The translations under genes and the position numbers were made by a program. Source: Pseudomonadota bacterium (GTDB lineage: Bacteria > Myxococcota_A > UBA9160 > SZUA-336). Taken from it: a stretch of DNA of 64,000 nt. The notes under the pieces were generated by a model. That model was not told where the DNA came from. It did no database searches and was given only the letters and a program-made list of their open reading frames with translations. Each line of letters opens with the position of its first letter. The stretch's first letter is position 1. Below, one piece after another: positions 1 to 29,684 of the stretch. The stretch lies in contig QJZC01000011.1 of the NCBI GenBank assembly GCA_003247575.1, positions 87,874-151,873 of the forward strand, read 5' to 3'.

Positions 1-398
1 CTCGGTGCAGCGATGTCGATGCCGTCGTGGTTTGCGCCCCAGCGTCGCCCGAACCGGCTCGAGACCTGGCCCCGAACGGGCCAGCGCATCCGCGTGCGGC
101 TGGACGAAGGCTGCCAGCGCCCGCGACTTGCGACCCCGCTTGGGGGACGCGCATTGCGGAACTCGGGTACGCGCAGCCGGTCGCCCACGTAGATCTTCGA
201 GGCGTTCTGCAAGCGATTGACGCGTGCGATTGCATCGACCGTCGTACCGTAGCGGCGTGCGATCTCCCACACGGTCTCTCCGGCCGCCACCACGTGGACT
301 CGGCTCCAGCGTGGCGCACGCGCAGACGTTCCCGCACACCCGTTCGCGAAAGCGATCAGGAACAGCAGCACACAGCAGGCGCCGAGCGTGCGCTTCAG
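1..398 (-). CDS. LysM domain / M23 (LytM-type) metallopeptidase lipoprotein, N-terminal part only (gene continues past the left edge)
   Basis: Reverse-strand reading frame, absent from the ORF track because there is no stop in the window. It reads LKRTLGACCVLLFLIAFANGC (signal peptide with lipobox Cys), then VAAGETVWEIARRYGTTVDAIARVNRLQNASKIYVGDRLRVP (LysM), then WPVRGQVSSRFGRRWGANHDGIDIAAP (M23 HxGxD). Start uncertain: there is no ATG; CTG at 398-396 overlaps the DedA stop (CTGA), and GTG at 461-459 is the alternative. Confidence 0.7.
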   Translation of the reverse strand, partial: MKRTLGACCVLLFLIAFANGCAGTSARAPRWSRVHVVAAGETVWEIARRYGTTVDAIARVNRLQNASKIYVGDRLRVPEFRNARPPSGVASRGRWQPSSSRTRMRWPVRGQVSSRFGRRWGANHDGIDIAAP

Positions 399-1054
399 GC
401 TCCGGAGGCGGTAGTGGCCTTCCGTCGATGCAAGAAGATGTACAGAGCGATCAGCAGACACGCTCCCCCCAGCACGTACCCAGTGGCTTCGCGGAGCAAA
501 CGACGCCAGAGCTCGTCGTTGTTCCCAGCAACGTATCCTACCCAGACCAACACTGTGCTCCAAAGCCCGGAGCCCAACGCGGTGTATGCGAAGAAGCGTA
601 GGACCGGCATGCGCGCGAGCCCCGCGGGCACCGAGATCAGCTGACGGATCCCAGGAATCAGGCGCCCAACCAGAGTCGTTATCTCCCCGTGGCGCGCGAA
701 GTACCGCTCGGCCGCGTCGAATTGCTCGCGCTTCAAGAAGAAGTACCCCCCGATGCGTTCGAGGATCGGGCGTCCGAGCCAGATCGCGAGAGCGTAGTTC
801 AGGGCTGCACCCAGCAGACTGCCGAGAATTCCGCACGCCACGGCAAGGGGTCCCGACATCTCGCCGCGCGCAGCGAGCATTCCGGCGGGGATCATTGCCA
901 CTTCGCTCGGGAACGGGAAGATCGAGCTCTCGATGGTCATCATGACGACGATACCGCCGTATCCCCAGTCGCGGACCAGATCTACGACCCAGTCCACCGC
1001 TGCAGCGAGGAAGGCTCCGATGCCCCCCATTGCTCCCTCGGCCCCTGCGCTCAC
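395..1054 (-). CDS. DedA / SNARE-associated family inner-membrane protein
   Basis: Track ORF 395..1111. Motifs seen: ESSIFPFPSEV...GILGSLLGAALNYALAIWLGRP...FFLKREQFDAAERYFARHGEITTLVGRLIPGIRQLISVPAG. I prefer GTG at 1054, preceded by GGAGGAGG. ATG at 1111 or 1030 is also possible. Confidence 0.8.
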   Translation of the reverse strand: MSAGAEGAMGGIGAFLAAAVDWVVDLVRDWGYGGIVVMMTIESSIFPFPSEVAMIPAGMLAARGEMSGPLAVACGILGSLLGAALNYALAIWLGRPILERIGGYFFLKREQFDAAERYFARHGEITTLVGRLIPGIRQLISVPAGLARMPVLRFFAYTALGSGLWSTVLVWVGYVAGNNDELWRRLLREATGYVLGGACLLIALYIFLHRRKATTASGA

Positions 1055-1150
1055 GCGTCCTCCTCCCGATGAATTCCGACCTTCCAGAGGCATCTTAGCC
1101 CACATGGGCATTGCCGCGCCGATCGGTACGCTATACTCCGCGACCTCTGT

Positions 1151-1227
1151 CGGGGCGTAGCGCAGCTTGGTAGCGCGTCTGAATGGGGTTCAGAAGGTCC
1201 CCGGTTCAAATCCGGGCGCCCCGACCA
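1151..1227 (+). tRNA. tRNA-Pro, anticodon GGG
   Basis: Full cloverleaf by hand. Acceptor CGGGGCG/CGCCCCG, D arm GCGC/GCGC, anticodon stem TCTGA/TCAGA with loop AT-GGG-GT, T arm CCCGG-TTCAAAT-CCGGG, and encoded CCA. Confidence 0.95.
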
Positions 1228-1354
1228 CGATTCCCCTTCCCGGTCGCGTCCCTCTCTGTCTTCAGGGTCTCCAAGTGGCTTGTGCTGGCCCCGGACCACG
1301 GCGAACGAGCGCGGCTACGCTGCTGGCCTCAGGGACACTCGCTAAGCTGACCTC

Positions 1355-1885
1355 ATGTCCAAGCTTCTGCTCAGCTTGATGCGTCACGCGAGTGCGCTCG
1401 TGGACTCCAAGGATCACGAGCGCAAGCTCAGCCCAGTCGGACATCAAGAGAGCCGTTCGGCCGGGCTCGAACTTGCCAAGGTAGGGCTGGATCGCGTGCT
1501 CTGCTCCACGGCTTTGCGGGCAGCCGAGACCTGCGAGGAGGTCTGCGGGCAGCTCGAGCACCAGCCGGCAATTGAATTCGAGCGAGGGCTCTACCTGGCC
1601 GAGCCGGACATCATCTTCGAACGCCTGAGTGAGCTTCCGCTGGGGGCGGAACACGTACTGGTCATCGCGCACAACCCCGGCGTGCAGCAGCTGGCCTGGG
1701 ACCTTGCGGCCGGTTCTAGCTTGCGGGCTCAGCTGCGGGCGGGAATGCCTCCCGCGACGCTCGTGCACTTCGAGGGCGAAGCTTCCGATTGGTCCGAGCT
1801 GCGTTCGACTCAGCTTCGGCCGCTCTGGCTCTGGTCGCCCGGCGCGGGCTCCCCGGTGCACGCGATGGAGTCGGAACGCGGCTGA
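1355..1885 (+). CDS. sixA: SixA-like phosphohistidine phosphatase (histidine phosphatase superfamily branch 1)
   Basis: 176 aa. Has the LMRHA catalytic RH motif at the N-terminus, then ...R.LS..G...LDRVLCSTALRAAET...VLVIAHNPG. Size and layout match SixA. Confidence 0.7.
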   Translation: MSKLLLSLMRHASALVDSKDHERKLSPVGHQESRSAGLELAKVGLDRVLCSTALRAAETCEEVCGQLEHQPAIEFERGLYLAEPDIIFERLSELPLGAEHVLVIAHNPGVQQLAWDLAAGSSLRAQLRAGMPPATLVHFEGEASDWSELRSTQLRPLWLWSPGAGSPVHAMESERG

Positions 1886-1919
1886 CCGCGCTTCCGCCCC
1901 AGCCGGCTCGGCTGCGCGT

Positions 1920-2309
1920 CTAAAGGCCGGAGCTACCGAGAATCTGATGGGTGATCGAGACCAGCTGGTCGCCGCCCATCGGTTTCTCCAGCACATCGAA
2001 GGCCAGGCCGTCGTTTGCCGCGCCCTCCAGCTCGCTCAGGAACTCGCGGTAGAACGCAGTCACGACGTAGATCGGAACGTCGATGCCCTGTTCGCGAATC
2101 GCCCGGAGCGTCTCGACGCCGTTGAGCCCTGGCATCTTCAGATCGAGGAAGATGAGGTCATAACGTTGTGAGGCGAGGCGGGCCAGGCCTGCTTCCCCAG
2201 ACTCGGCGTCGTGGACCGTATAAGGTTGTCCCTCGAAGGCAAGCTGAAACGACTTGCGCACTCCCGCATCATCGTCCACTACAAGTACCGACTTCCTGCT
2301 CATGAGCAT
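1920..2309 (-). CDS. Single-domain CheY-like response regulator
   Basis: 129 aa. VLVVDDD acidic pocket, phospho-acceptor in DLIFLDLKMPGLNG, VVTAF, and LEKP lysine. Confidence 0.9.
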   Translation of the reverse strand: MLMSRKSVLVVDDDAGVRKSFQLAFEGQPYTVHDAESGEAGLARLASQRYDLIFLDLKMPGLNGVETLRAIREQGIDVPIYVVTAFYREFLSELEGAANDGLAFDVLEKPMGGDQLVSITHQILGSSGL

Positions 2310-2348
2310 CTCTCCCTATGCGCACCCCTCGAACGGGTCTTGCGCACC

Positions 2349-2975
2349 TTACCAACGCACCTCTGCGGGATCCCACAGCCGTTCGATCCGAGCCTCGTCG
2401 ACGCCGACGAGTTGCTGGCGCGGTTCTGATCCCATGCGCACGAGCGTCGGAGTGGCGCGCACCTCGTCGAAGCGGGCGCGGTTCGGCTGCGTCAGGATGT
2501 CGATCACCTCGAGCTCGAACTGTCCTTGCATCGCGGAATCGAGCATCGTGCGGACTCGATGGGCGCACGACTGCGCATAGCGTCCCCGGCCCGTCAGATA
2601 CAGCTTGAAGAGCCGAGAGGGACGCTCCCAGATGACCGCGTCGACCAGCCAGCGGACGGTCTCGATCCGAACCGGTGGCGCCAGTACCTCGAACCAGATC
2701 GGAACGTCTGACGGGATCTCGTGATCCTGCGCAGGAACCACGTAGATGGGTGCGGTCCGTGCGACCGCTCTGAGAGCGTGAAGCGCCGAGGACAAATTGT
2801 CCCCGCATTCGGCGTAGGCGACGACGACCACGCCAGCTCCATGCTGGCCGATCTCATCGATGCCCTGCTCGATGGTGCCGCAGGAGCGGAGGGAAGTCTT
2901 CGCAGCTGTCAGGGCCTTCTCGAAGGTTTGGATCAGCTCGGAATCTTGGGCGATCAGAACGAGGTCTCGGTTCAC
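2349..2975 (-). CDS. Pseudo-receiver domain fused to a KaiB-fold domain
   Basis: C-terminal ~90 aa (about 2349-2618) aligns by eye with KaiB: FKLYLTG...FELEVIDILTQPNRARFDEVRATPTLVRM...PRQQLVGV. The N-terminal ~118 aa has a receiver-like beta/alpha pattern, but the phospho-acceptor position reads VVVAYAECGD with no Asp. The GTG start overlaps the kinase stop (GTGA at 2972-2975). Confidence 0.85.
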   Translation of the reverse strand: MNRDLVLIAQDSELIQTFEKALTAAKTSLRSCGTIEQGIDEIGQHGAGVVVVAYAECGDNLSSALHALRAVARTAPIYVVPAQDHEIPSDVPIWFEVLAPPVRIETVRWLVDAVIWERPSRLFKLYLTGRGRYAQSCAHRVRTMLDSAMQGQFELEVIDILTQPNRARFDEVRATPTLVRMGSEPRQQLVGVDEARIERLWDPAEVRW

Positions 2976-4513
2976 CTTGGCTCTCCCGACGGACTAGAGT
3001 GACCTAGGGGTAGTGTAACCCGGAATCGCGCGCCAAAGTCGGCAAGTGAGTTTCCCGTCAGGGTCCCGCCGTGAGCCCGCACGATTCCCTGGGAGATGGA
3101 CAGGCCGAGGCCGGTGCCCGACCCGACAGGTTTCGTCGTGAAGAATGGGTCGAAGATGCGATTCTCGGTAGTTGGATCGATACCGCCGCCATTGTCGGAG
3201 ACCGTGAGCTCCATCTGGGCACCGTCGGAGCGGAGCGCGATCGTCAGCTTTGGATCGCGGTCCTCCACGCTGCGCAACGAGTCCAGGGCATTCGAGACCA
3301 GGTTGACCACGACTTGCTCGATCCCGTCGGCGGATATGCACACTAGCGGGAGATCGGGATCGACCATCAGGTCGAGCGTCACCTCTTCGCGTCTCATTTG
3401 ATAGGAGAACAGGTTGCACACCCTGGAAACGATCTGGGCGAGATCCTGAGGACTCTCCTGTCCACTGAGCGAGGCACCGGTGTGCGAGAAGTCCAGCAGG
3501 CCGCGCACGATGCGCGCGCAGCGTGCAGCTTCTCGCTCGATGTCGTGCAAGATGGGCAAGCGCGCGTCACCGTCGTCGGTTCGCTTGGCACAGTATTGCG
3601 CGAAGGTGCCGATGCTCATGATCGGGTTGTTGAGTTCGTGCGCGACCCCGGCCACCGTGCGGCCCAGGGCTGTCATCTTCTCTGCATGGATCAGCTGGGC
3701 CTGCGAGGCCTCCAGCTCGGAGAGCGCATCCCGGAGCTTCGACTCGGCGAGCTTTCGAGAGCGCAAGTCGGATAGGATTCCCGTGAAATAGATCTCGCCG
3801 CGGTCCTTCACCTCGCTGACGGAGAGCTGAATGGGTATGCATGATCCACTGGCGCACTGAGCCAGTACCTCGCGACCACGGCCGATGATCCTGGGCTGTT
3901 GGGTTTCCAGGTAGCGGCGGACATAGGCATCGTGCGCTGCCGCGTGTGGCTCGGGCATGAGCATGGAGACGTGAGACCCGATCAGCTGTTCGCGCGTGTA
4001 TCCGAGCAGCGATTCGACCGCATCGTTTGCGGACAACATCGTTCCATCGGCACGCATCGTGATCACACCGTCGACCAAGGTCTGCAAAATCGACTCGAGG
4101 AGCGCGCTCGAGCGCGTGTCCTGCTCGGAGCGCTGCAGCGCAGCTCGTGCGGTGATCAGCGGCTCGACCAGCTGGTGCACGCGCTCGCGTTGCGCGGCTG
4201 TCAGAGGAGCTGGCTCGTGCCGCCAGAGGACCACCAGGAATGGCGTGTCCGGCGATGGCTCGATGGGGATCTGCGCCTCGTGGAGATGGCCCTCCTCTCG
4301 GAGAGCGGGATTGCCTCTATCGTCAGGTCTCTGTGGCGGGGTTAGTTCGCCCAAACTCCATCCCGTAGGGCTCCGCTGCGAGGCGTACGCGCACCGATAG
4401 GCGTTCGAGGCGGTCTCGTACTCCGCGAGCGCACAGGCGTCTGCGTCCAACAGCTCGCAGATCAACGCGGCGATCCGCTGACAGTCCTGCAGATGTCGTT
4501 TCGTGAGTTCCAA
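2972..4513 (-). CDS. PAS-domain sensor histidine kinase (cytoplasmic; GAF-like N-terminus)
   Basis: PAS ([34 protein letters not shown]), H-box [11 protein letters not shown], and N/G boxes (NLVSNALDS; DNGGGI; GSGTGLGLS). Track ORF reaches 4822, but residues 1-103 are Arg/Ser-rich and look non-coding. I prefer TTG at 4513 behind GGAGCGGAG. Confidence 0.85.
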
Positions 4514-5055
4514 TCGTCTCCGCTCCTGCCTGGCCCAGGGGGCACCGTACCTGCCCCGCCAGCATAGACAGCCCTGGCGCTTGCGAAAAGCCCCCAGGTG
4601 AGTGTCCCCCAGGAGACGGCTCGCGCTGGTGCTCCTGGGTCCGGCAAGCCTAGGCGGCAGCCGAATGGCAGCACGGGCATGAAGTCGGGGGCGAATTGCC
4701 ACGCCCCTTGCGGCTCTCCGGGATAGAGAGCACTTTGCCCCTCGCGTCGATTGCCAGGATCGATGCGCGTTCAGGTTCGAGGTCGACACCTGCGCTCTGG
4801 CGCTAACCGGTGTCTGCTTCATACGGAGTCACTCTGCAGGTGAGGTGGGCTCCTACTCCACTGAACGGACTGACCCGTCGATTCACGAGGGCTCGAGCGG
4901 CTTCGTAATGACCACTCGGTCGTTCCCTCATTCTGATTGTCCAGCCATACAACACGACTGGACCGATCGGCTCGTATCGCCGCCGATCGGTTCGTGCATG
5001 CGTACTCGACGAGCCCTCATTCGCGCTGACGAGTGAGAGCTCAGGAGGTTGACTC

Positions 5056-7551
5056 GTGCGTGTGAGAGCTCCTTCAGGTATCCGGAAGCAGGCGAGAGTG
5101 CGCGGAGCGTTCGTCGTCGCACTCTGCTCGGTCGCGTGCGTGATCAGTGGGCCCGCTGGCCTCACATTCGCTGACGAGCCCAGCAACCGTGTACGCGTGG
5201 AGGACGAGAAGACAGCGGCACCGGGGCGAGTTCGTCCTGCTCCATCCAACGAGGGATTGGAGTCGATCACGGTGACGGCTCGCAAGCGGCCCGAGAGCGT
5301 CGATCGGGTTCCCGTGTCGATCTCGGTCCTGACCGACCAGGATCTGGCGGAGCGAACGGTGCGTCGAACCGCAGATCTCGACGCTCCCAATCTCGAGATC
5401 GCAAACACGATTGGTTTCGCAAATAGTGCGCGCGTCGCGCTGCGAGGCGTGGGGCAGTTCGACGTCGCGCCCACGACGGACCCGGGAGTCGGCATCTACT
5501 TCGATGGAGTGTACCTGGCTCGGGCACAGTCGGGGCTGCTCGCGCTCGCAGACCTGCAGAGGGTAGAAGTGGTTCGCGGCCCGCAGGGAACGGTGTTCGG
5601 AAAGAACACCATCGGGGGCGCGATCAACTTGATCACCGCCAAGCCCGAGTTCGACTTCGGTGGAAGAGCCGTGTTGCGCTATGGAGATTTCGATGAGATC
5701 GAGACCCGTCTCGCGCTCAACGTTCCGCTTGTCTCCGAACGTGCTGCTGTGCGCCTGAGCCTCGCGACTGCGACCCACGATGGCTATCAGAAGAACGTCG
5801 GCGGCGGCGGTGACGGAGACGACGAGAAGCTTCTCAGTGGGCGGATTCAGCTGCGGCTCGTGCCGAGAGCAAACGTCGAAGTGCTCGTCGCGGCCGACCT
5901 CGCGATCGAGGACAAGGAGCCTCAGCCAGCCACATGCATTCCCGTGACGGGCATCGGAGCCCCATCGACGCTCCTCGGAACGATCGATTTTTTCAACAGT
6001 CTCTTCGTTCCTGGGGGGTCGCTGAATGCGCCCCGCTTCGCAGCGCAGTGTGCGCAACGGGCTCGGCACGAGGAGCGCCGACGCTTTCGTTCGGACATCC
6101 CATTCACGAAGGACGATCAGACGTCATTCGGCGGCTCGGTCACCATCCTTTGGGATCTCGACGACCGTAGCACGCTGACTTCGATCTCCTCGAGCCGGGG
6201 TTTTCGGACGCGGGCAGGGGTCGATCTGGATGGGACCGAGTTTCCGCTCACGGTGGCGACGAGCCCTGACTCACTCGAACAGGATCAGATGAGCCAGGAG
6301 TTCCAGTTTGCATCGAGTACTCTGAGTGGACGTCTGCGCTACCTGCTTGGCTTGTACGGTTTTCGTGAGAAGGTAGCCAACTCGTCGTTGGGGCCGGACG
6401 GACCCGGCGTGTCGATCGCGACGCTGAGCGATCCCTCCTCGATTCAGGGCTTCGAGCTGCGCCCCTTCGCGCTGGTGCGAAACAAGTTTCGCACGGGAAG
6501 TCTGAGCTACGCGGCGTTCGGTCAGGTGACCTTCGACGTCTCGCCCACGCTCGAGGCGACTGTAGGGTTGCGCTTCTCGCACGAGCGAAAGCGATTCTTT
6601 CGGCGGGGTGTCGTCACTCGCTCGGGGGTCTCGCTCTCCTTGTTCGATCCGGTCGCGGCCGCGAGCCTCGATGGCCTCGCCGCGGAGCTCGTTCCGGCTC
6701 CAGTCGGGACGCTGATCGCGAGTGTGGATCGTGCGAAGCGATTCAGCGACTTCACTCCTTCCGCGAGTCTCACCTATAGCTTGAGCGATGACCTGCTCGC
6801 CTACCTGAGCTTCAGCACCGGATTCAAGAGCGGGGGCTTCGATGGCCGCGAGGTCAACGATGCTCCCGAGGTCGATCCCGAGCACCTGACGACCTACGAG
6901 ATCGGCTTCAAGGGCGATGCCCTGGATGGGCGTCTGCGCTTCAGCGCGGCTGCCTTCTACAGCGTCTATCGCGACGTGCAGCTCACGGTAACGACTGGGA
7001 ACGTTGCAAACCCGACCGATGTGCTGAATGCCGGGAGAGCGATCATCCGCGGCGGAGAGGTGGAGCTCGCGGTGCTGCCTCTGGAAAACTTACGGCTCGT
7101 TGGCGCGCTCGGTGTGCTCAGTACGAAGTACGATCGGTTTTCCGATCGCATCGTGGATACGAGCGGGCCCGCGCCCGTCGTGATCCCGGTCGATCGCGAC
7201 AACCTCGACCTTCCCTTTTCGCCAAACTACACCTTGAGTCTGTCGGCCCTCTACTCGGTCCCGACTGAATGGGGGACCCTACGCATGGGTGCGGAGTGGC
7301 AGCACAAGGGCGCGCAGTCGCTCGACGTGCTCAATACGGAGCAGCTCAGGCAGGGAAAGCGCGGCGAGCTCAGTGTGCGCATCGGAGTTGCGTCGAGAGA
7401 CGAGCGGGTCGAAGTCTCGCTGTACGGGCGCAACCTGCTCGACCGGGACTATCAAGTGAGCGGTTTCGAGCAGACGTCTGCGAATGGCTTCGTAGGCCGC
7501 TTTCAGGGGCCTCCGCGTAGCTATGGGGTCGAGCTCCAGGTTCGCTTCTGA
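5056..7551 (+). CDS. TonB-dependent receptor (TBDR-1)
   Basis: 831 aa. GTG start 7 nt after AGGAGG, signal peptide, plug region (ITVTARKRPESVDRVPVSISVL...RVEVVRGPQGTVFGKNTIGGAINLI), a long beta-barrel, and C-terminal ...YGVELQVRF ending in Phe. Confidence 0.9.
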   Translation: MRVRAPSGIRKQARVRGAFVVALCSVACVISGPAGLTFADEPSNRVRVEDEKTAAPGRVRPAPSNEGLESITVTARKRPESVDRVPVSISVLTDQDLAERTVRRTADLDAPNLEIANTIGFANSARVALRGVGQFDVAPTTDPGVGIYFDGVYLARAQSGLLALADLQRVEVVRGPQGTVFGKNTIGGAINLITAKPEFDFGGRAVLRYGDFDEIETRLALNVPLVSERAAVRLSLATATHDGYQKNVGGGGDGDDEKLLSGRIQLRLVPRANVEVLVAADLAIEDKEPQPATCIPVTGIGAPSTLLGTIDFFNSLFVPGGSLNAPRFAAQCAQRARHEERRRFRSDIPFTKDDQTSFGGSVTILWDLDDRSTLTSISSSRGFRTRAGVDLDGTEFPLTVATSPDSLEQDQMSQEFQFASSTLSGRLRYLLGLYGFREKVANSSLGPDGPGVSIATLSDPSSIQGFELRPFALVRNKFRTGSLSYAAFGQVTFDVSPTLEATVGLRFSHERKRFFRRGVVTRSGVSLSLFDPVAAASLDGLAAELVPAPVGTLIASVDRAKRFSDFTPSASLTYSLSDDLLAYLSFSTGFKSGGFDGREVNDAPEVDPEHLTTYEIGFKGDALDGRLRFSAAAFYSVYRDVQLTVTTGNVANPTDVLNAGRAIIRGGEVELAVLPLENLRLVGALGVLSTKYDRFSDRIVDTSGPAPVVIPVDRDNLDLPFSPNYTLSLSALYSVPTEWGTLRMGAEWQHKGAQSLDVLNTEQLRQGKRGELSVRIGVASRDERVEVSLYGRNLLDRDYQVSGFEQTSANGFVGRFQGPPRSYGVELQVRF

Positions 7552-7675
7552 GCGAGATCGATCGTCGGACCTGTCGTGCCCCGCGCTGATGGGCGGTGGG
7601 GTACCACCGCGAGAGATCCGAGCGAGCCGAGGAATGCAGGTCGTCTAGACACGTACGGGTGTATCGCGTCCTCGC

Positions 7676-7692
7676 GGGACAGATAGTGTCCC
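7676..7692. promoter_or_regulatory. Perfect inverted repeat GGGACA-N5-TGTCCC, candidate operator upstream of the TetR gene
   Basis: GGGACAGATAGTGTCCC lies in the 300-nt gap between TBDR-1 and the TetR gene, about 160 nt upstream of the TetR start. Size and symmetry are typical of TetR-family operators. No binding evidence. Confidence 0.3.
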
Positions 7693-7852
7693 AATTCCTC
7701 CAGGACACCGGGCCAATGCGCAAGCTTGCTCTAGTGGCCCGCCCGCGGCCTGCCGCGCAATTGTCAGCAACTTGGTCATGTGATCAACTCGATTGTGAGA
7801 GATCGGGTGGGGAATTGATCGCAGATGCTGAATACCGAAGCCATATCGTGAC

Positions 7853-8689
7853 GTGATGAAGAGTGCAGAGGTCGAGACCAAGAACAATAAGCGAGCGGCC
7901 GCGACGTGCGCATTTTGCGGGGAGCCGATCGAGGTACCGCCCGGTCCGGGCCGCCGTCCGCGCTACTGTCGTCCCTCTCACCGACAGCGTGCCTATGAGG
8001 AACGACGACTGAATCGCGCGCGCCAAGCGGGCATGGTGCGGTCGACTCGCAGCGCGGCCCCCGACCTTCCACCCGTCGCGAAGTCGGGGGATCCGAAGCG
8101 TCGCATTGCGGCGGCTGCGCGCGCCCTGCTCGCGGAGTGCGGGCTCGAGGGGACCACGATGCGCGCGATCGCCGACCGTGCAGGGGTTGCCTACGGCACC
8201 GTGAGCTACCACTGCGGCACCAAGGAGGAGCTCCTGATTCAGGTGCTCCAGACCGAGGGCTGCAAGCTGCAGCGAGATGCCGAACGTACCTGGGAGATCC
8301 CAGATCTGAGCTCTCGACGGAGATCGCTGACCGAGGAGATGCGCACGCGCGTCGAACGCCAACCCGAGGTGTTCAAGCTGCGCTTCGAGATGTTTGCCCT
8401 GGCGCTGCGCAATGAGCCCTACCGAAGCGAGGTGGCGAAGTTGCTCCAGAGTGCGAGGGCATCCGTCGGCGAGTCACTCGTAAAAGCTGGATTTCGGGAC
8501 GAGGACAGTCTGCGCCTCGCGCCGCTGGTTCTCGCAGCCATTGATGGACTTGCGCTCCAGGCGCTCGTCGATCCGGACTTCGATCACTCGGCAGCGCACG
8601 GTCTACTGACTCTCCTCTTGGGGCAATTCCGTCGTGTACGGGAGAGTGCAACGGACCGCGCGGGACGCACGGGCGAGCAGGACGCCTAG
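7853..8689 (+). CDS. TetR-family transcriptional regulator with N-terminal zinc-ribbon-like extension
   Basis: TetR HTH: RIAAAARALLAECGLEGTTMRAIADRAGVAYGTVSYHCGTKEELL. The N-terminal 60 aa contain CAFC-x16-CRPSH followed by RQRAYEERR. Confidence 0.85.
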   Translation: MMKSAEVETKNNKRAAATCAFCGEPIEVPPGPGRRPRYCRPSHRQRAYEERRLNRARQAGMVRSTRSAAPDLPPVAKSGDPKRRIAAAARALLAECGLEGTTMRAIADRAGVAYGTVSYHCGTKEELLIQVLQTEGCKLQRDAERTWEIPDLSSRRRSLTEEMRTRVERQPEVFKLRFEMFALALRNEPYRSEVAKLLQSARASVGESLVKAGFRDEDSLRLAPLVLAAIDGLALQALVDPDFDHSAAHGLLTLLLGQFRRVRESATDRAGRTGEQDA

Positions 8690-8758
8690 CGGCAGAGAAA
8701 GCGCTCGCCGCATGGCGAGCGCCCGTCTTCTCGGTTGCTTGCGAGGTCTGGAGGGACC

Positions 8759-11194
8759 ATGAGTCGAGGAAAGATGTTCTACGTCCGTGTAGCGAGCGCA
8801 TTCGCGCTCGCTGCGAGTCTCTGGGCGGGCGCCTTGGGTGTCCCTCGCGACAGCGCCAATCACGGGCCGCGCCGTCAGCTGAGCCCAGCCGCGCAGGTGG
8901 CGACCCTCACGGGTGCGCAGGAGCTGCGTCGCGCGTATCGCGAATGGGTGGCGGTCCACGAGCGACGCGGAGGGGATCGCCGCATCCAGTTGCAGCTGGG
9001 TCGTTCGGGACAGGTCGATCACGCCCCGGGACGAGAGGGGAATCCCCTCGGTGTCGCAGAAGTGGATCTGGTCGAAGGAGCCTTCGAGATCGAGGTTCGA
9101 GATCTCGACGCGGGGTTCGAATACACCGCCTGGGTGCTCGACAATCAGCCGGGACCGGGCAACAGCTTGCTACCGGATCGGTCGGATCGCTACCTCGAGT
9201 TGGGGTCGTTGGCCGAGACTGCCGGTGTGTGGCGGCTCCAGCGCTCGCTCGGATCCGAGCCATTCTCCGACCTGAGCGTTGATGCGCTCTTGATCGCGCG
9301 CGCAGGTGCACATCCTGCAGACGGAGTCGTGATGTCCGGTGCGCCCGATCTGTTCCAGCGGATCTACTCGGCCACGCGTAGCGAGGCAAGCCTGGCTGCG
9401 AGCGAATACGTCGAGATCGCTGCCTGGGCAGACGAGCGCCGCGATGCACCAGGCAGCTGGTTCGGAATCGCGACCGCGCGGGCAGCGCGAAAGAATCCCC
9501 CACAAGGGATCGTCGTAGATGCGGACGTGCTGATCGACGAGCTCGTGGCACTCGGTGCGGATGTCTTCATCAATGAGGACTTCGAGGGCAATGGGCGCAC
9601 ATGCGAGACGTGCCACGACTTTCTCAACAACAATACGATCGACCCGCCCTTCATTGCTCGGCTGCCGGACAACGATCCCCTCTTCATCGCGGAACAGATT
9701 CCTGGGCTTGCAAGCGATGGTACGAACTTGGGCGCCCTCGACGTTCCGGAGATCCTGCGGGCGACGGCGCTGATCGGCATCTCGGAGGACGGAGTCGACA
9801 AGCCGAGTGTCAATCGATCGGTCCCGCACCTGAAGGGGCTGCGGCAAACGTTCGGACCGCCGGTGGGCGTCTTCCGCGACTTCTCCGATGCGAACCCTGC
9901 GCCGTTTCCCCTTCCTCCGGCGGGCTCCGATCCTGCGGTTCGTATGGGTCTGACGCTCGACAACGCGAGCGTGCCACCCTTCGATCGCGGTGGCTTTGGT
10001 GGCGACCTGAGTTTCGAGCCCGAGCTCGGTCTCTTCGGGCGCATCCGCGATGCCGTGCCAGGGGCAGTCTTCCTGCTCTTCACGAAGACCCTGGATCGGC
10101 AGATCGGGGTCGATTTTCGCCTTCCCACGGATTTGGAGGCCGACGCGGTTACCGCGTTCTACTTCACGCTCGGGCGGAGCTCCGATCTCGAGCTTCCGAT
10201 TCCGCTGTCCGATCCCATCGCGGCTCGCGGTCAGCTTACCTTTATGAACGACGGCGGCGCGACGAATGGACGTGCGCCCGGACAAGCTCAGGTAATCCCA
10301 CTGCTGGATGAGTTCGGAAATCCGATTGGGGCCGGCAAGTGCAACGTCTGCCACTTCAATGCGGGTGCTCTCGCGAACCCTGTGGCCTTCAGAGACGTGG
10401 AGCGTGTATTCGCGGAGCAGCTCGGAGTTGCCCCCGATCAGGCGCCCCGCATCGGCCTAGCCAACATGAACTTCGAGACGGGAGCGGAGCGCCTCACGTC
10501 GCAACCAGCCGACATCGTCGCCGGATCGAAGAAAGCGCGCGATGCGGGCTTCGGCCGGGTCCCACAGGGAACCTCGCTCGGGCCAGACGCGGCGCCCTGC
10601 CGCGGCGGACTCGGGGGCTTCGGGGGTACGGTCGTGCTGGACTTTCCTGGGGCGGATCCACCGATTCGGGCGGGCGACTGCAGCGAGGCGTTCAGCACTC
10701 AGCCTCTGATCGAGGCGGCGGACACGCCTCCGTTCTTTCACAACAATGCGGTCACGACCATCGAGACGGCCGTGTCCTTCTACAACAGCGATGCTTTCAA
10801 CGGTTCGCAGGGCGCGCGCATTCTCGGGGCGATCACTGGCACGAACGGAATTCGCCTCGAGGCGACAGACGTGCAGGCGATTGCGGGCTTCTTGCGTGCG
10901 ATCAATGCGCTCGACAACATCGCCGCGGCGACCTCGCTGTTGCAGGCCACCCAGGGCCAGAGTGGAGCGGTGTTCCGACAGCTCGTCGACGGTGCACTCG
11001 CCGAGATCGTCGATGCGATCGACATTCTCGAGGGTGCCTTCATCAACCCTGCCGCGTCCCGACGCCTTCGCGATGCGCGCGTCGCGCTCGAGGGGGTACG
11101 ATCAAGTGCGGAGAGCGCAGTGGCGGGCTCCACGGCTCTACAGGTCGCCCTGGCTGCACTGTTGGACGCACGCGAGGAGATCTCACCGAGCTGA
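8759..11194 (+). CDS. Secreted di-haem cytochrome c, CCP/MauG-like core with novel N-terminal domain (paralogue A)
   Basis: Signal peptide. CxxCH at 9602-9616 (CETCH) and 10340-10354 (CNVCH). CCP-like distal segment: FSTQPLIEAADTPPFFHNNAVTTIETAVSFYNS...VQAIAGFLRAINALDNI. ATG at 8759 follows GGAGGG. Paralogous to 11270-13714 and 56737-58767. Confidence 0.8.
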   Translation: MSRGKMFYVRVASAFALAASLWAGALGVPRDSANHGPRRQLSPAAQVATLTGAQELRRAYREWVAVHERRGGDRRIQLQLGRSGQVDHAPGREGNPLGVAEVDLVEGAFEIEVRDLDAGFEYTAWVLDNQPGPGNSLLPDRSDRYLELGSLAETAGVWRLQRSLGSEPFSDLSVDALLIARAGAHPADGVVMSGAPDLFQRIYSATRSEASLAASEYVEIAAWADERRDAPGSWFGIATARAARKNPPQGIVVDADVLIDELVALGADVFINEDFEGNGRTCETCHDFLNNNTIDPPFIARLPDNDPLFIAEQIPGLASDGTNLGALDVPEILRATALIGISEDGVDKPSVNRSVPHLKGLRQTFGPPVGVFRDFSDANPAPFPLPPAGSDPAVRMGLTLDNASVPPFDRGGFGGDLSFEPELGLFGRIRDAVPGAVFLLFTKTLDRQIGVDFRLPTDLEADAVTAFYFTLGRSSDLELPIPLSDPIAARGQLTFMNDGGATNGRAPGQAQVIPLLDEFGNPIGAGKCNVCHFNAGALANPVAFRDVERVFAEQLGVAPDQAPRIGLANMNFETGAERLTSQPADIVAGSKKARDAGFGRVPQGTSLGPDAAPCRGGLGGFGGTVVLDFPGADPPIRAGDCSEAFSTQPLIEAADTPPFFHNNAVTTIETAVSFYNSDAFNGSQGARILGAITGTNGIRLEATDVQAIAGFLRAINALDNIAAATSLLQATQGQSGAVFRQLVDGALAEIVDAIDILEGAFINPAASRRLRDARVALEGVRSSAESAVAGSTALQVALAALLDAREEISPS

Positions 11195-11269
11195 CCTTCG
11201 ATCCTTGCCTTGCTCGCGAGGTCGAGGAACTCGGAGGCTCCGGTGCAGTGTGCTGAAATGGAGGGTCGC

Positions 11270-13714
11270 ATGAGACGACTGCGAATGGTTGCTAGGGTCG
11301 GAGTCCTGTCTGCCGGATTGCTCGCGTTCGGCGGGGGGGGTGTGTGGATCGCGCGCGACTCCGCCGCGCCCGTGCCGAGCGACGTGAGGGCCGTTGCGGC
11401 AGGAATGGTCGGTGCACCCCGGTTGCGTGCGGCCTACGCGAACTGGTCGCGAGCGCACGAGGCGCGTGGTGGAGATCGTCGAGTCGAGATCGTGCTCGGA
11501 CGATCCGATCCGCACACGCTTGCGGATAGGGTACAGCTGGGAGTCCTCCGACTCGACCTGGTCGACGGAGTCGTCGAGGCGACTCTCCCTGGACCGCTGG
11601 ACGAGGCTGATGGCTACGTCCTGTGGCTGGTAGACAATCCGACTTCCCCAGACAATGGGCTGAGCGCAGATGTGGGCGACCGCTTCCTGGAGGTTGGGCG
11701 TTTCGAGCCCCGAGGAACCGGCTACGCGCTGCAGGCGGAACTCGGGACACGGGCGTTCGAGCGATTTCAGGTCGATGGCGCTCTCGTGGTTCCGGCGGAC
11801 GGCGACCCGACTGGCCGTGTATCGATGGGGGGGGCTCCCGACCTGTTTCAACGAATCTACACGTCGGTGCGGACTCCCGAGCTGTTCGCCGAGAGTGATT
11901 ATGCCGATCTGCTCAGCGAAGATGCGACCAGCTTCGGGATCGGCGTGCGCCCAGCGATGGCTGCCCGGAAGCCGAATCCGGATCGGACGGTCGTCGACGT
12001 CGATGTCCTGCTCGATCGCTTGATCGCACGCGGTGCAGACCTGTTCATCAACGAGACCTTCGATGGCAACGGTCGGACCTGCTCGACGTGTCACAGCCTT
12101 GCGAACAATCTGACGTTGAATCCCGGCTTCATCGCCGGCCTGTCCGACCAGGATCCACTCTTCATTACAGAGCAGATCCCCGAACTCGCGAGCGACGGAG
12201 TCAAGCCCGGAGCTCTCGACGTGCCGGAGATCCTACGAGCCACGGGCCTTGTTGGAATCCCAGGGCCCGACACCGTCGCGAACCCGGCGATCAATCGGTC
12301 GGTGACGCATCTTCGGGGGCTGCGAGCGACGGTGGTGCCGCCGGCACCGGTGGTCGCACCGTTCGGTCCCGAGAACCCGGCGCCCTTCCCTCTCCCCGAC
12401 GGACCGCCGTCCGGCACTGTCATGGGGATCACGGTAGACAACGCGACGGTGCCGCCGTTCGAGCGCGCCGGGTTCGGCGGTGACCTGGCGTTCGTGCCCC
12501 AGAATGGCCGCTTCGGACGAGCGCGAGACGCGGTCCCAGGCGCGACCGCGCTGCTGCTCACGCGGTCTCTCGCGCGCGTGCCCGGTGTGGACTTCCGCAT
12601 GCCAACCGACTTGGAGACCGATGCGGTCGCGGCCTTCTTCTTCTCGCTCGGGCGGAGTGCTGACATCGAGCTTCCGATCCCGCTGTCGGATCCGATCGCG
12701 CGCCGCGGTCAGGCCGTCTTCATGAACGACGGAGGCGCACTGAATGGAAATCAACCGGGAAATGCATCGGTGGTTCCGCAAGTAGACGACTTCGGAAATC
12801 GGATTGGCGCCGGAAAGTGCAACATCTGCCACTTCAACGCAGGTGCACTTACGAATCCAGTCGTGTTCGCATCGGTGGAGCCCGCCTTTGCAAGCATGCT
12901 CGGGATTCCGCGCGATCAATTTCCCTCGCTCGGGCTGCGAAACATGAACTTCGAGACTGGCGTCGAGCGACTCTCCTCGCAGCCGGCCAATGTAGTTGCG
13001 GCAGACAAGAAAGGTCGAGATGCAGGCTTCGGCGTGGTTCCACATACACCGGGTGGAAGCGCGAGTTCATCGGGCTGTGCCAATGGGAGGGGCGGATTCG
13101 GCACCCTTGTAATGGTTCCCTTCCCAGGGGCGGATCCGCCGGACGTGGTCGGAGACTGTATCGAGGCATTCAATACTCAGCCGTTGGTGGAAGTCGCCGA
13201 TACTCCCCCCTTCTTCCACAACAACGCCGTCAGTACGGTCGAGATGGCGGTCGAGTTCTACAATACCGATGCCTTCAATCAGTCTGCGGCTGCACGACTG
13301 CTGGGTGCGGTCACCGGGACGAATGGGATTCGGCTCGAGGCGACGGAGGTGCAGGCGATTGCCTCGTTCCTGCGCGCGATCAATGCGCTCGACAATATTC
13401 GAGAGGCGCGTGAGAACCTGCTCGCAGCGTTTCGAGTGGGCTCTCGACCGGACGTGGAGCAGCAGCTCATCGCCAATGCAACGATGCAGATTGACGATGC
13501 GATCCAGGTTCTGTCGGCTGCAGGCGTGAACACTCGGGCCGTCGATCGCCTGCTCGATGTTCGTGCTGGGCTGCAGCGCGCAGGAGTCGCCGATGAGCGA
13601 CGAGGCGTCTTCTCGCGATTCCGACGACTCGATCGAAGGCCGAGATTCGTAGAGGTCGTGCGCGCTCTGGCCGGACTGGATCGGGCTCGCCAGAGCATCT
13701 CCCCGAGTCGCTGA
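11270..13714 (+). CDS. Secreted di-haem cytochrome c, CCP/MauG-like core (paralogue B, tandem to A)
   Basis: CxxCH at 12080-12094 (CSTCH) and 12818-12832 (CNICH). Collinear with paralogue A along its whole length: DLFINETFDGNGRTC, NRSVTHLRGL, NMNFETGVERLSSQPA, ADTPPFFHNNAVSTVEMAVEFYNT. ATG at 11270 follows GGAGGG. Confidence 0.8.
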   Translation: MRRLRMVARVGVLSAGLLAFGGGGVWIARDSAAPVPSDVRAVAAGMVGAPRLRAAYANWSRAHEARGGDRRVEIVLGRSDPHTLADRVQLGVLRLDLVDGVVEATLPGPLDEADGYVLWLVDNPTSPDNGLSADVGDRFLEVGRFEPRGTGYALQAELGTRAFERFQVDGALVVPADGDPTGRVSMGGAPDLFQRIYTSVRTPELFAESDYADLLSEDATSFGIGVRPAMAARKPNPDRTVVDVDVLLDRLIARGADLFINETFDGNGRTCSTCHSLANNLTLNPGFIAGLSDQDPLFITEQIPELASDGVKPGALDVPEILRATGLVGIPGPDTVANPAINRSVTHLRGLRATVVPPAPVVAPFGPENPAPFPLPDGPPSGTVMGITVDNATVPPFERAGFGGDLAFVPQNGRFGRARDAVPGATALLLTRSLARVPGVDFRMPTDLETDAVAAFFFSLGRSADIELPIPLSDPIARRGQAVFMNDGGALNGNQPGNASVVPQVDDFGNRIGAGKCNICHFNAGALTNPVVFASVEPAFASMLGIPRDQFPSLGLRNMNFETGVERLSSQPANVVAADKKGRDAGFGVVPHTPGGSASSSGCANGRGGFGTLVMVPFPGADPPDVVGDCIEAFNTQPLVEVADTPPFFHNNAVSTVEMAVEFYNTDAFNQSAAARLLGAVTGTNGIRLEATEVQAIASFLRAINALDNIREARENLLAAFRVGSRPDVEQQLIANATMQIDDAIQVLSAAGVNTRAVDRLLDVRAGLQRAGVADERRGVFSRFRRLDRRPRFVEVVRALAGLDRARQSISPSR

Positions 13715-22067: not shown

Positions 22068-22297
22068 TCGTCTTGTTGCACTTGCCGTCCTGTCCCCAAC
22101 TGGGGGCATTCAGCGAGCCGGAGTCGCGGGACACTCCTCTGGCGAAGCGAGTCTTCAAGTGCGGGGCGGCGCTCAAAAGCGGGCAAGTTTCATGATCCTC
22201 AGGAGTCATGCCCGCAGAAAGTGCCCTTCCGCAGAGATCAACTGCTGGGCGCTGGTGCGCGCTTCGCCGCGTCAGCGTCGCGAGAGGTCTGAGTACT

Positions 22298-25261: not shown

Positions 25262-25328
25262 TCGAAGCGGTGCCTGGCTGGAGGCCGAGGAGCTCCGCCG
25301 CCTCAACCTCGGCACTCTGAGGTATGCG

Positions 25329-28300
25329 GTGGGTCCCGTGCGGGTGCACGGGGCCCACCGCAGAGGCTCCGCACAGAGCCTGGCTCGAAGTGCTGCTTGG
25401 CTCAGGCTGCTCGTGTCTGTCGCCGATGGGTGGGTGGGAGCATTCGTGTTCGAGCCCGAAGGATTTGCCATCAAGGAGCGGATTCGCTCCGAGAGCCATC
25501 GGGACGTGTATCTCGCGTGCCGGGAGTGCGATCAAGCCGAGGCCGTCGTTTCGGTCTATTGGCGCCATGAGAGCTCCGATGCCCGTGCTGAGCGCAGGAG
25601 CGAGGAGCAGGCCGTCGCAGCCTGTGCCGGGCCCCACGTGCCGGAGATTCTGGGGACGGGTGGCGAGCGCGAGGCGGAGTGGATCGCACTCCGTCGAGAG
25701 CCGAGTCTGCCTCTCTCTCAGTGGGTGCGGTCCAGTCCTCCCTCCATAGCGGCATTCCTGAACGTCGCCGAGCAGCTGGCAAGTGTGCTCGTTCGCGTTC
25801 ACGCTGCGCGTCTGATCCATCGCGAGATCGCCCCAGAGAATCTCGCGATCGACCCGGACACGCTCGAGACGAGCTGGTTCGACTTCTCTCGGGCGCGCTC
25901 CCTCGGTGCGGAGCGTGAAGGCTTTGTGCGTGCAACGGACAGAAGGGATCCACGCTCCGCGTATATCTCGCCGGAGCAGAGTGGTCGGATGAATCGGGGG
26001 GTCGATTCCCGTAGCGACCTCTACTCGCTCGGTGCCACGCTCTACTGGGTTCTGCTCGGTCAGCGCACCTTTCCCGTCGAGGATGGACTCGCGTTCATTC
26101 ATGCGCTCCTGGCTCGTACGCCCGAGCGACCGTCATGCGTACGGGAAGATGTGCCCGAGCCGGTGTCGTGCATGCTGCTCAAGCTGCTTAGCAAGGAGCC
26201 GGCAGACCGCTACCAATCTGCCCGCTCGCTCTGCGAGGACCTCGGAAGCCTACGCGAGGAGCTCTACAGGGAAGGCGCTCTCAGGCATCACTTTCAGCTC
26301 GCAAGGGGTGATGCACCGCTCGAGCCACACTTTCCACCGAAGCTGTACGCTCGGGAGAACGAAGCCGAGATGCTGCGCGCCCAGTGGACCGCGACGCGCC
26401 GCGGAGAGACGCGATTGGTGCTGATCTCCGGTGAGTCCGGCACTGGGAAGTCTGCGCTGGTCGGCGAGCTGGGTCCGACGATCGCGGCTTGCGGAGGTTA
26501 TCTCGCCGTAGGCAAGTTCGATACCTCCCATGACCAACCCTATGTAGCGTGGAGTGCGGCGATCGGCTCCTACGCGCAGCAGCTGCTGACCGGCACGGAT
26601 GCTGAGGTCGATCGCGCGAAACGTGAGATCCTCGAGGGAACGGGCAGTCTGGCACGCATCTTGACCGATCTCGTTCCGGATCTCCGGTTCGTGCTCGGAG
26701 AGCTTCCCCCTGTTCCCGCTCTCGGATCGACCGAAACGCGCTCGCGGATCACGCTGGCACTCAAGCGGCTGCTGCTTGCGTGTGCGACACCGGCGCACCC
26801 ATTCGTTCTCTTCCTGGACGATTTGCAATGGGGTGACGCAGCAAGTCTGAGCGTGCTCGACGACCTGCTCGAGGAGGCCGCCGACGCGGCATTGCTGATC
26901 GTTGCCGCCTATCGGTCCGACGCGGCCGCGACGAATCATCGTCTCTCCGGGGTGCTCGAGCGCATCTCGAGAAGTCCGAGGCACGGCTGTACGCTGCATC
27001 TCGGCGCGTTGCCCGAAGATGCGATCGCGCGCATGCTCGCGGATGCCTTCGGCTCCAGCGAGGCCGACGTCTGCCTGCTGGCTCGCCAGATAGGTCGAAA
27101 GACTGCCGGGCTTCCGCTCCTGATCCGGCAAATGGTGAGTCACATGCATTGTCGTGGACTGATCGCGTATCGCGATGGAGCGTGGCGAGCGGATACGGGG
27201 GCGGCGTCTACGGTCGAGCTTCCTCAGGGTGCAATCGTCCTGCTCGTGGCGAAGCTGCGGCAGCTCGATACAGACGCCCGCCAGTTGATCTCGCTGGCAA
27301 GCTGCATCGGGAATACTTTCGACCGTGGCTTGCTGGCGGAGCTCGCGCCACTTCCGCAAGGAAGGATCGAGCGTGCTCTGCATGGACTCATCGACGCAGG
27401 CCTGGTCGAAACCAGCACGGCGGGCCTGCGATTTGCGCACGATCGAATTCGGGAGTCGGCCCAGCTACTGCTCTCCAGCGAGGAGCGACATCGTCTGCAC
27501 TACGAAATCGCCATGCTGCTCAACCGGCGACCCGAGCCGGAGCGCGAGGTGCGCTTGCTGGAGATCGCAGATCACCTGAGCACCGGCGTGCAAGGCATTC
27601 CGGCGTCGGGGCTCCCAGATGCGATCCAGCTGCTGGCGGAGGCTGGTCGGAGCGCACTGCGCGCGGGTGCACCGGCCACGGCAGATCGGCACCTCACGAC
27701 CGCGGGAGCACTGTTACTCGAAGCCTCATCGGGGGAGGGACCCAATCTGCTCGACGACACGTTCAGCCGTGAGCTCCTCTTCTCGCGGGTCGAAGCTGCC
27801 CTCCTCTGTTCTTCCTTGGATCGCGCTTTGCAGTTGGTCCAGTCTCTGTTGGAGCAGCCGCTCACGTTGATGGATCGGGCACGGGCGCAGATGCGCTGTA
27901 CACAGATCCTTGCCCTTACGCGGCCGGTGGCGAGCTCGGCGAGCCACCTTCTGGATGCACTCGCCGAGCTGGGGATGAAGTGGCCGATGCGCCCGTCACG
28001 TCTGCGCACCGTCTTGGCCGTTCTTCGTTTGAGCATCGAGCTGCGCGTCCGCGGCCTGGACGCAGTGTCGAGAGCTTGCGAAGTGCCGGATCCACGTCGG
28101 ATGGCCGCGCTTCTACTCCTCTCGCAGGGTGCGGCCACACTCGGTCGTCTGGATGTGAACCTCGCCACGTTGGTCTCGTGCTGGGCGAACACGATGAACC
28201 TTCGCTTCGGTCACACCGGTAGACCTCTGTATACACTCGCCACGTTCGGTGTGCAGCTGTTCTTGGTGCTCGGCGACGTCGCCATGGCACAGCGAATCTT

Positions 28301-29243: not shown

Positions 29244-29684
29244 GTCGGCCCTCGGTCTTCGCTCCTCGACCCGTTCGGCCGGATGTGAGTGCCGTCACTT
29301 GCCATCGGCGGGCGCGTCTCTACCTTCTCTGCCCTCATGAGTCATGCTGAGTCAGGCGCGACGCGCGCCGCCAAGCAGGACGCTCGCTCGACCCGCCAGG
29401 GATCGAGCACGCGTCGGGGGCAACCGGGTGGCTGTCCCTGGCTGAAATCGCCCGCAGGGCGACGCCGCCCGCGGGTCGCTCGTCCTGTCCAGTCCAGGGG
29501 GAGAGCTCGCGTGACGGGTGCCCTCGAGGAGCAACCGGCGCAGCGCTGCCGGTAACGGGAAACGGGCAACGGAGATCGCGCGCCGACGCGCCCCTTAGTG
29601 AAGTCACTGCAGTCGTGGCCTGTGGCAGTCGTGATGGGGCACGAGCGTCGAGCTCGCGAACCTAGCATCGGCACGGAGTCTTTC

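Follow-up and report, generated by a model that had tools for sequence, protein, structure and literature searches.

A pseudo-receiver–KaiB fusion protein between a histidine kinase and a response regulator: a rare variant of a kinase/receiver/KaiB module with no KaiC detected

Introduction

KaiB is the textbook example of a protein that switches between two folds. Here we consider a locus in which a KaiB domain is joined to a predicted pseudo-receiver in one polypeptide, encoded between the gene of a sensor histidine kinase and the gene of a single-domain response regulator. The locus is situated in a stretch of 64,000 nucleotides (nt), called 'the window' below (positions 87,874 to 151,873 of the forward strand of contig QJZC01000011.1, GenBank assembly GCA_003247575.1, a bacterium placed by GTDB in Myxococcota_A, UBA9160, SZUA-336); coordinates are those of the window unless another contig is named.

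Fold-switched KaiB binds the helix-1/strand-2/helix-2 face of the CikA pseudo-receiver and raises the phosphatase activity of CikA; the same pseudo-receiver blocks the phospho-acceptor His of CikA itself (PMC12632262, PMC6378743). The CikA pseudo-receiver of Synechococcus elongatus bound by fold-switched KaiB is represented by PDB 5JYV (Tseng et al. 2017, as described in PMC12632262 and PMC6378743). By analogy, in the locus considered here too a pseudo-receiver and a thioredoxin-fold KaiB would jointly control a histidine kinase and a response regulator. However, the pseudo-receiver of CikA is located within the kinase, with KaiB a separate protein on KaiC, whereas in the window the fusion partner of the pseudo-receiver is KaiB itself, both domains are absent from the kinase, and no KaiC was detected. 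SasA resembles our locus in linking a KaiB-fold domain with a HisKA kinase whose signal goes to a response regulator; the KaiB-like domain of SasA, though, forms the N-terminus of the kinase polypeptide and has KaiC as its binding partner, while the KaiB domain of the window belongs to a separate polypeptide, apparently coupled to the kinase in translation.

The KaiB domain of the cyanobacterial 'elongated KaiB', KaiB-TV4 (PDB 8UBH), is stably fold-switched and thioredoxin-like, as seen by nuclear magnetic resonance (PMC10808063). Elongated KaiB (KaiB-4) has an N-terminal extension and a C-terminal KaiB domain, as does the fusion protein of the window, but its host cyanobacteria have KaiC (PMC10808063, PMC5520375). 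Outside cyanobacteria, KaiB-family domains occur in the kaiBC loci of Proteobacteria (Rhodobacter sphaeroides, Rhodopseudomonas palustris, Legionella pneumophila), often, as in our case, near a PAS histidine kinase. In these loci a double-domain kaiC is present directly beside kaiB; in contrast, none was detected at the window locus or in the genome bin to which it belongs. A survey of clock genes concluded that KaiB is found only alongside full-length KaiC (PMC5520375). We searched the literature for orphan or KaiC-less KaiB and for receiver–KaiB fusions and found no study.

Results

Gene order and translational coupling

The kinase, fusion and regulator genes are arranged head to tail, all on the minus strand. 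The kinase gene occupies positions 2972..4513; its frame is open from 4822, and the likely start is TTG at 4513, downstream of GGAGCGGAGA (GGAG ribosome-binding site), which gives a protein of 513 aa. The gene of the 208-aa fusion protein occupies 2349-2975, with the TAA stop at 2349-2351. The 3′-end of the kinase gene, CCA AGG TGA, and the 5′-end of the fusion gene, GTG AAC CGA, have GTGA in common (2972..2975, read directly in the sequence), and GGGAGAG is located upstream of the GTG start of the fusion gene. At the sequence level, this 4-nt overlap indicates translational coupling of the fusion to the kinase. The regulator gene (1920..2309) has its first ATG at 2309, 39 nt past the stop codon of the fusion gene, for a product of 129 aa; an alternative ATG at 2303, for a product of 127 aa, has a better spacing from a GGGAGAG ribosome-binding site. 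The overlap and the 39-nt distance were both part of the original prediction, made from the window sequence without database searches, and both can be read in the sequence. Promoter and terminator scans of the locus gave nothing above chance.

Domains found in the kinase by Pfam are PAS, HisKA (with the H-box HELNNP) and HATPase_c. The N-terminal ∼130 aa of the kinase had no significant Pfam match (GAF appeared only with E 0.11) and no match to KaiB, which agrees with the earlier description of a kinase without a KaiB-like domain. The active site of the regulator, an ordinary receiver (PF00072, 82 bits), is intact.

The KaiB domain of the fusion protein

The KaiB domain (residues 121-208, positions 2352..2615) was delineated by Pfam, PDB sequence matches and AlphaFold2. 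Residues 124-196 match the Pfam KaiB family PF07689 with 58.3 bits and E 6.2e-16 (the gathering cut-off is 27 bits), while thioredoxin families of Pfam gave no match to the fusion protein at E<0.01. The original prediction had taken the C-terminal ∼90 aa for KaiB, from an alignment with the S. elongatus protein that we could reproduce, and had allowed that the domain might score as a generic thioredoxin-like fold; it scores as KaiB. All PDB sequence matches of the domain were to KaiB or to the N-terminal domain of SasA. The best of them, and so the closest solved relative in sequence, was KaiB-TV4 of elongated KaiB (8UBH, E 7.9e-12); the SasA match was weak (E 9e-4). The models of circadian KaiB gave 36.5 bits (TIGR02654, cut-off 145.3) and 37.2 bits (NF006798, cut-off 110). 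As these scores are far under the NCBIfam cut-offs for circadian equivalogs, we assign the domain, on its sequence, to the KaiB family but not to the orthologues of clock KaiB. In a scan of the whole genome bin it was the only KaiB domain.

An AlphaFold2 model of the whole fusion protein built from a 38-sequence alignment had a predicted local distance difference test score (pLDDT) of 86.9 and a predicted template modelling score (pTM) of 0.81; in a first model, built from five sequences, the pLDDT of the KaiB domain was <50, thus only the larger alignment gave a usable model. The predicted topology of the KaiB domain, strand-helix-strand-helix-strand-strand-helix, is that of the thioredoxin-like, fold-switched form. 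The top Foldseek matches were 8UBH, again the first, and 5JWO, with 4KUN and 8FWJ also found; the SasA N-terminal domain (6X61) was matched too. The domain has a single conserved Cys and no CxxC thioredoxin active site.

In the alignment, the GDLSD loop is shortened by a 2-residue deletion, and the Gly equivalent to G88 of S. elongatus KaiB is replaced by Leu, Val, Ile or Ala across the window protein, in which it is Leu198, and its close homologues (see below); a Gly at this position is missing from elongated KaiB as well. The replacement hints at a KaiB domain that may be locked in one form. The G89A change is said to stabilise the fold-switched form of T. elongatus KaiB.

The pseudo-receiver domain

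Residues 1-118 of the fusion protein (2622..2975) had no Pfam match even at E≤10, Response_reg PF00072 and the minor Pfam pseudo-receiver families included. Nevertheless, AlphaFold2 confidently predicted a receiver fold for this region (pLDDT ∼90), and with Foldseek the model matched receivers (Spo0F, PhoP, KdpE and others) at target-normalised TM-scores of 0.73-0.80, as well as the pseudo-receiver of KaiA. Profile-profile comparison by hhalign with a family of 127-aa receivers, described below, gave a probability of 98.7% and E 1.5e-16 over 117 columns. In comparison with true receivers the domain has a 6-residue deletion at the position of the fourth helix (alpha-4), where no helix was predicted.

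All five catalytic residues are replaced: the Asp-Asp pair of the acidic pocket by Ala9-Gln10, the phospho-acceptor Asp by Ala53, the Thr by Pro81 and the Lys by Pro100. Four homologues have Ser or Ala at both positions of the acidic pocket and at that of the phospho-Asp (Gln is kept at the second position in two of them), Ala at the position of the catalytic Thr and Thr at the position of the Lys. The N-terminal domain is thus, as judged from these residues, an aspartate-less pseudo-receiver as defined in PMC12632262, and the fused receiver would no longer be open to phosphorylation. A receiver-like region of ∼118 aa without acidic pocket or phospho-Asp had been suggested before from the sequence; the predicted fold and the loss of all five residues bear this out.

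We also considered the ∼150-aa N-terminal extension of elongated KaiB as the same pseudo-receiver; this was ruled out, as only the KaiB parts align in profile comparison.

Conservation of the fusion protein

Four close homologues, ∼50% identical, were found on five short metagenome contigs, one of which came from farmland soil. The 4-nt overlap with the upstream gene is the same on each contig (L010, L011, L012, L035 and L036); where enough sequence was present and checked (L010 and L012) the upstream product is a kinase. A gene starts 20-40 nt downstream of the fusion on every contig; it encodes a receiver in four of them and is interrupted by the contig end in L036. Genes beyond the regulator vary among these contigs (LuxR-type, unknown, TadE-like). 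The variant with the dead receiver is known from only five clusters, all metagenomic: scans of GTDB genome contigs and JGI metagenome contigs with the five-sequence alignment yielded no further members, and 60 genomes of the same family and class contained no relative of the fusion and only two standard KaiB carriers.

Within this clade the pseudo-receivers are at most 37% identical, as compared with ∼72% for the KaiB domains, ∼74% for the regulators and 59% for the C-terminal parts of the kinases. Still, 67 alignment columns are invariant, among them WFEV..P.R....W on the strand-5/helix-5 face of the pseudo-receiver and PSRLFKLY of the linker; invariance of so many columns in spite of the divergence argues against simple decay of the fusion.

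A wider kinase/receiver/KaiB module

With a profile made of the window protein and its four close homologues we searched 1.8 billion representative proteins. Among these, ∼30 clusters of receiver–KaiB fusions of 210-240 aa gave end-to-end matches (positions 1-191), so that the survey of the pseudo-receiver–KaiB architecture proposed earlier disclosed a much larger receiver–KaiB family, with the window type as a rare offshoot. The pseudo-receiver can be aligned over its whole length with the true receivers of ∼35-45 fusion clusters that have conserved active sites. The canonical fusions have an invariant phospho-Asp, Thr and Lys, and both Asp of their acidic pocket are nearly invariant. They are labelled 'response regulator' at NCBI; their hosts are Planctomycetota, Dehalococcoidia, Anammoxibacter and one deltaproteobacterium, and their genes were found behind kinases and beside PAS-GGDEF-EAL genes or chemotaxis-like clusters.

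Also found by this search was a very large family of stand-alone receivers of 127 aa, ∼60% identical to the fused receivers and labelled, where named, as CheY-like or OmpR/NtrC-family regulators in databases. For each of the four 127-aa receivers that we sampled, at six loci in all, a histidine kinase gene overlaps on the upstream side and a small KaiB gene (86-99 aa) adjoins. The usual position of the KaiB gene is directly downstream of the 127-aa receiver; one locus has the order kinase-KaiB-receiver-KaiB. A locus with three KaiB genes (L038, contig of JGI 3300009513, 957-3235 and 5787-7919) has the order kinase, KaiB, 127-aa receiver, KaiB, dCache-HAMP protein, second dCache-HAMP kinase and KaiB; there was no KaiC within its 7.9 kb.

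One clade of a receiver tree (support 98 by the Shimodaira–Hasegawa-like approximate likelihood ratio test, SH-aLRT) took in the regulators of the window clade, the stand-alone 127-aa receivers, the fused receivers and the pseudo-receivers, and left out 16 other receivers of the window's own genome. Fused and split receivers are interleaved in this tree, with at least 12 changes needed. Repeated fusion and splitting is classic evidence that two domains, here the receiver and KaiB, work together physically. The branch of the pseudo-receivers has a length of 2.14. In the window's own genome the best non-self match of the pseudo-receiver profile was the adjacent regulator, with 33.8 bits (next, 20.2); the dead receiver is probably a degenerate copy of the module's own receiver. 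A recent tandem duplication giving rise to the pseudo-receiver and the downstream regulator was considered but is not supported, as the two are not sisters in the tree; the long branch makes this uncertain.

The other two genes lead to the same module. The best matches of the kinase were kinases of receiver/KaiB modules elsewhere, with 221, 209 and 188 bits (loci L037, L017 and L019), all above its best paralogue in its own genome (154 bits). The regulator scored 166 bits against the profile of the 127-aa receiver family, while the runner-up among the 101 receiver-domain matches of the genome scored 72 bits; no other protein of this genome belongs to this family, which elsewhere is found together with KaiB. 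Going by these scores, the kinase and the downstream live receiver are orthologues of the kinase and the receiver of the module, and all three genes of the window are orthologous to a widespread kinase/receiver/KaiB triad.

Common to the window locus and the other receiver–KaiB fusions and operons are a collinear receiver and KaiB domain of equal length, a kinase gene upstream, often overlapping, and the same receiver and kinase families; kaiC was found neither nearby nor, where a genome could be searched, genome-wide. In the window, however, the fused receiver is without the five catalytic residues and has the 6-residue deletion, and the live receiver follows the fusion, whereas elsewhere it precedes KaiB. 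As the KaiB-linked receiver lacks all catalytic residues, we classed the locus as a variant rather than as a typical member of the module. It is a rare derived offshoot, in which the fused receiver is dead and the live receiver has moved downstream.

Search for KaiC

The window lies within a contig of 159 kb, in which ∼90 kb on one side of the locus and 68 kb on the other side are without kaiC. The genome bin has 5.8 Mb and is 73.9% complete. The KaiC model TIGR02655 had no match at E≤1e-3 in the whole bin. The original prediction had left room for a kaiC gene just beyond the region then analysed, which would have made this a standard kaiBC accessory locus; neither the contig nor the bin contained one. 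Matches to PF06745 in the bin were weak and were read as RecA, ATP synthase alpha subunit and DnaB, plus one ATPase-receiver protein. The latter, the only KaiC-like protein in the bin, has 592 aa (contig C11, 82962-84740, plus strand) and consists of a single KaiC-like ATPase domain (PF06745, 53.7 bits) and a receiver; it also has a weak PelD-type GGDEF match under the Pfam cut-off. Three other genomes with the module or the fusion contained no KaiC either.

As a control we took 400 genomes from the same phylum, all with a completeness of 90% or more. KaiB was present in 21 of them; 16 of the 21 have kaiC (E 1e-26 to 1e-200), always directly beside kaiB. The search for KaiC is therefore sensitive, as it detects the gene in 16 genomes of this phylum. 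The remaining 5 carriers of KaiB, each at least 94% complete, are without KaiC. In three of these, from one genus, KaiB is located beside genes for a receiver and for a receiver-PAS-kinase, and in the fourth beside a PAS-GGDEF-EAL gene; in the fifth the neighbours of KaiB gave no Pfam match. In a KaiC-less genome of the same phylum (locus L040, G161:C27, ∼3985-4997, minus strand) we saw a receiver-HisKA frame overlapping a KaiB frame; this could be a receiver-DHp-KaiB fusion, a frameshift or a pair of overlapping genes.

Neighbouring genes and other observations in the window

A gene for a SixA-like histidine phosphatase (His_Phos_1; 1355-1885, plus strand; 54 bits to TIGR00249, cut-off 74.5) is convergent on the regulator gene, with 34 nt between the stop codons. 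No His_Phos_1 gene was seen among the downstream genes of the homologous loci, where the downstream gene differs in every case. As its association with the operon is not conserved, a role for the SixA-like protein was rejected; its adjacency, already suspected earlier to be a coincidence, is probably just that, and the gene is probably no part of the system. Further on, a tRNA-Pro (GGG) gene (1151-1227, plus strand) is located between the SixA-like gene and a gene for a VTT/DedA-family membrane protein (395-1111, minus strand).

Elsewhere in the window, between genes for a TetR regulator and a PilY1-like protein, we observed two tandem open reading frames (ORFs) of ∼820 aa without Pfam match (8735-11194 and 11210-13714, plus strand). 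The first contains two CxxCH haem-binding motifs (CETCH and CNVCH), which suggests that it may encode an undescribed c-type cytochrome. A 1017-aa ORF without Pfam match (22208-25261) is overlapped at its end by the gene of a 1368-aa Ser/Thr protein kinase fused to an AAA_16 (STAND-type) ATPase (25137-29243, plus strand). An OpgG/OpgH (MdoG/MdoH) pair for periplasmic glucan synthesis was found at 29598-33319 (plus strand); the closest named homologues of OpgG come from gammaproteobacterial genome bins, with 55-57% identity, while the closest homologue overall has 64%. By this protein the genome would tentatively be assigned to the Gammaproteobacteria. Finally, the product of 36252-37544 (minus strand) scored 397 bits against PF08014, the MATCAP tyrosine carboxypeptidase family, in what is a bacterial genome.

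Discussion

The original prediction had read the locus as a KaiC-independent switch on a two-component pair. The conserved gene order and the orthology to a module without KaiC support this reading. We consider it rather probable, with some room left for other explanations, that the three genes are co-transcribed and make up a self-contained two-component module, independent of KaiC, rearranged and partly degenerate, which modulates signalling from the kinase to the regulator.

In such a module the kinase would phosphorylate the live 127-aa receiver, while the pseudo-receiver–KaiB protein would be produced at a rate matched to that of the kinase, owing to the overlap of their stop and start codons. 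Unable to take a phosphate, the fusion could serve as a phosphorylation-independent adaptor or decoy. Its receiver-like face might dock on the phospho-acceptor helices of the kinase, in the way in which the CikA pseudo-receiver blocks its own kinase; alternatively or additionally, its KaiB domain might capture the live receiver. Whichever contact it makes, the fusion would either adjust how phosphate flow is balanced or relay the output. Together with the precedent of CikA, the recurrent joining and separation of receiver and KaiB implies that the KaiB domain may act by binding the receiver of the module.

Several points weigh against this reading. The partners proposed for the KaiB domain are deduced solely from the order and the fusion of genes, and no output gene is evident within the window. 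AlphaFold2 tends toward the fold-switched form for KaiB proteins regardless of the true ground state (PMC10808063); as it favours this form, the predicted topology is weak evidence on the ground state of our domain. A tree of KaiB domains, which might have split kaiBC-type KaiBs from those of the two-component type, had too few columns to resolve them. The pseudo-receiver, on its very long branch and with moderate support (86), stands among the fused receivers, which leaves us unsure of its exact origin. Finally, the ATPase-receiver protein of contig C11 could be a partner of the KaiB domain in trans, and a distant kaiC is possible, with the bin only 74% complete.

Instead of an adaptor on the kinase, the fusion could be the output of the pair: the phosphorylated 127-aa receiver would bind the fusion and free or reshape its KaiB domain for a downstream target. 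The contact would be made by receiver-receiver pairing, through the fourth/fifth helix face, or by the KaiB domain, and the target, as far as related loci tell, could be a cyclic-di-GMP enzyme. Some output by protein-protein contact must exist, since enzymatic and DNA-binding domains are missing from both the regulator and the fusion; the invariant WFEV..P.R....W motif is on the strand-5/helix-5 face that receivers use for pairing; and related modules are followed by PAS-GGDEF-EAL or HD-GYP-type genes. However, the operon has no such enzyme gene beside it, either in the window or on the short homologous contigs, where the neighbours are SixA-like, LuxR-type, TadE-like or unknown, and the tight start/stop coupling joins the fusion to the kinase and not to the regulator. 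On balance we regard this explanation as unlikely, while giving it some weight.

A little less probable still is that the KaiB domain works on a KaiC in trans, either a canonical kaiC in the 26% of the genome that the bin lacks or the ATPase-receiver protein of C11, so that the fusion would link the kinase to the state of an ATPase, in the manner of cyanobacterial KaiB, SasA and CikA. The incompleteness of the bin (73.9%) and the presence in it of a 592-aa KaiC-like protein speak for this, as does the fact that all functions of KaiB characterised so far involve KaiC (PMC5520375, PMC6378743). Yet a search that was sensitive in 16 genomes of the phylum gave no TIGR02655 match at E≤1e-3 in the bin; kaiC adjoins kaiB in 16 of 16 genomes, and none is present in the ∼90 kb and 68 kb around our locus; KaiB without KaiC is also seen in three other genomes that carry the module and in five high-quality ones of the phylum; and the KaiB domain scores 36-37 bits where the circadian equivalogs have cut-offs of 110 and 145. 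That the fusion is a decaying relic heading for loss, with kinase and regulator as the working system, as the loss of five of five catalytic residues and the much faster divergence of the pseudo-receiver (≤37% identity) than of the KaiB, regulator and kinase parts could suggest, we regard as very improbable against an intact frame of 207-208 aa, a 4-nt overlap and gene order kept at every locus, five proteins ∼50% identical, 67 invariant columns that include the pseudo-receiver motif and the whole linker PSRLFKLY, and a confident two-domain AlphaFold2 model (pLDDT 86.9, pTM 0.81).

Returning to the KaiC-independent module, one could speculate, in a decidedly tentative way, that KaiB holds a general, KaiC-independent job as a receiver-binding partner-switch in two-component signalling. 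KaiA carries a pseudo-receiver domain, and the KaiB–CikA contacts of the clock, perhaps also its KaiB–KaiA contacts, would then be remnants of this job. The window protein would be a covalently pre-assembled complex of KaiB and pseudo-receiver, locked in the thioredoxin-like form and equimolar on the kinase, which it would toggle between kinase and phosphatase modes according to whether the live receiver, once phosphorylated, drives the dead one off the KaiB domain.

Throughout the literature that we searched, the function of KaiB is tied to KaiC, whereas the window locus and its parent module put KaiB domains in kinase/receiver pairs without detected KaiC. The finding adds a pseudo-receiver type that current domain libraries miss. 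In the dead-receiver variant, the receiver that can take a phosphate and the receiver joined to KaiB are different proteins; what phosphorylation and KaiB binding each contribute could therefore be studied with three small soluble proteins. For the KaiB family the locus raises the question of what role KaiB had before or outside the clock, and whether binding of receiver domains may be its older function.

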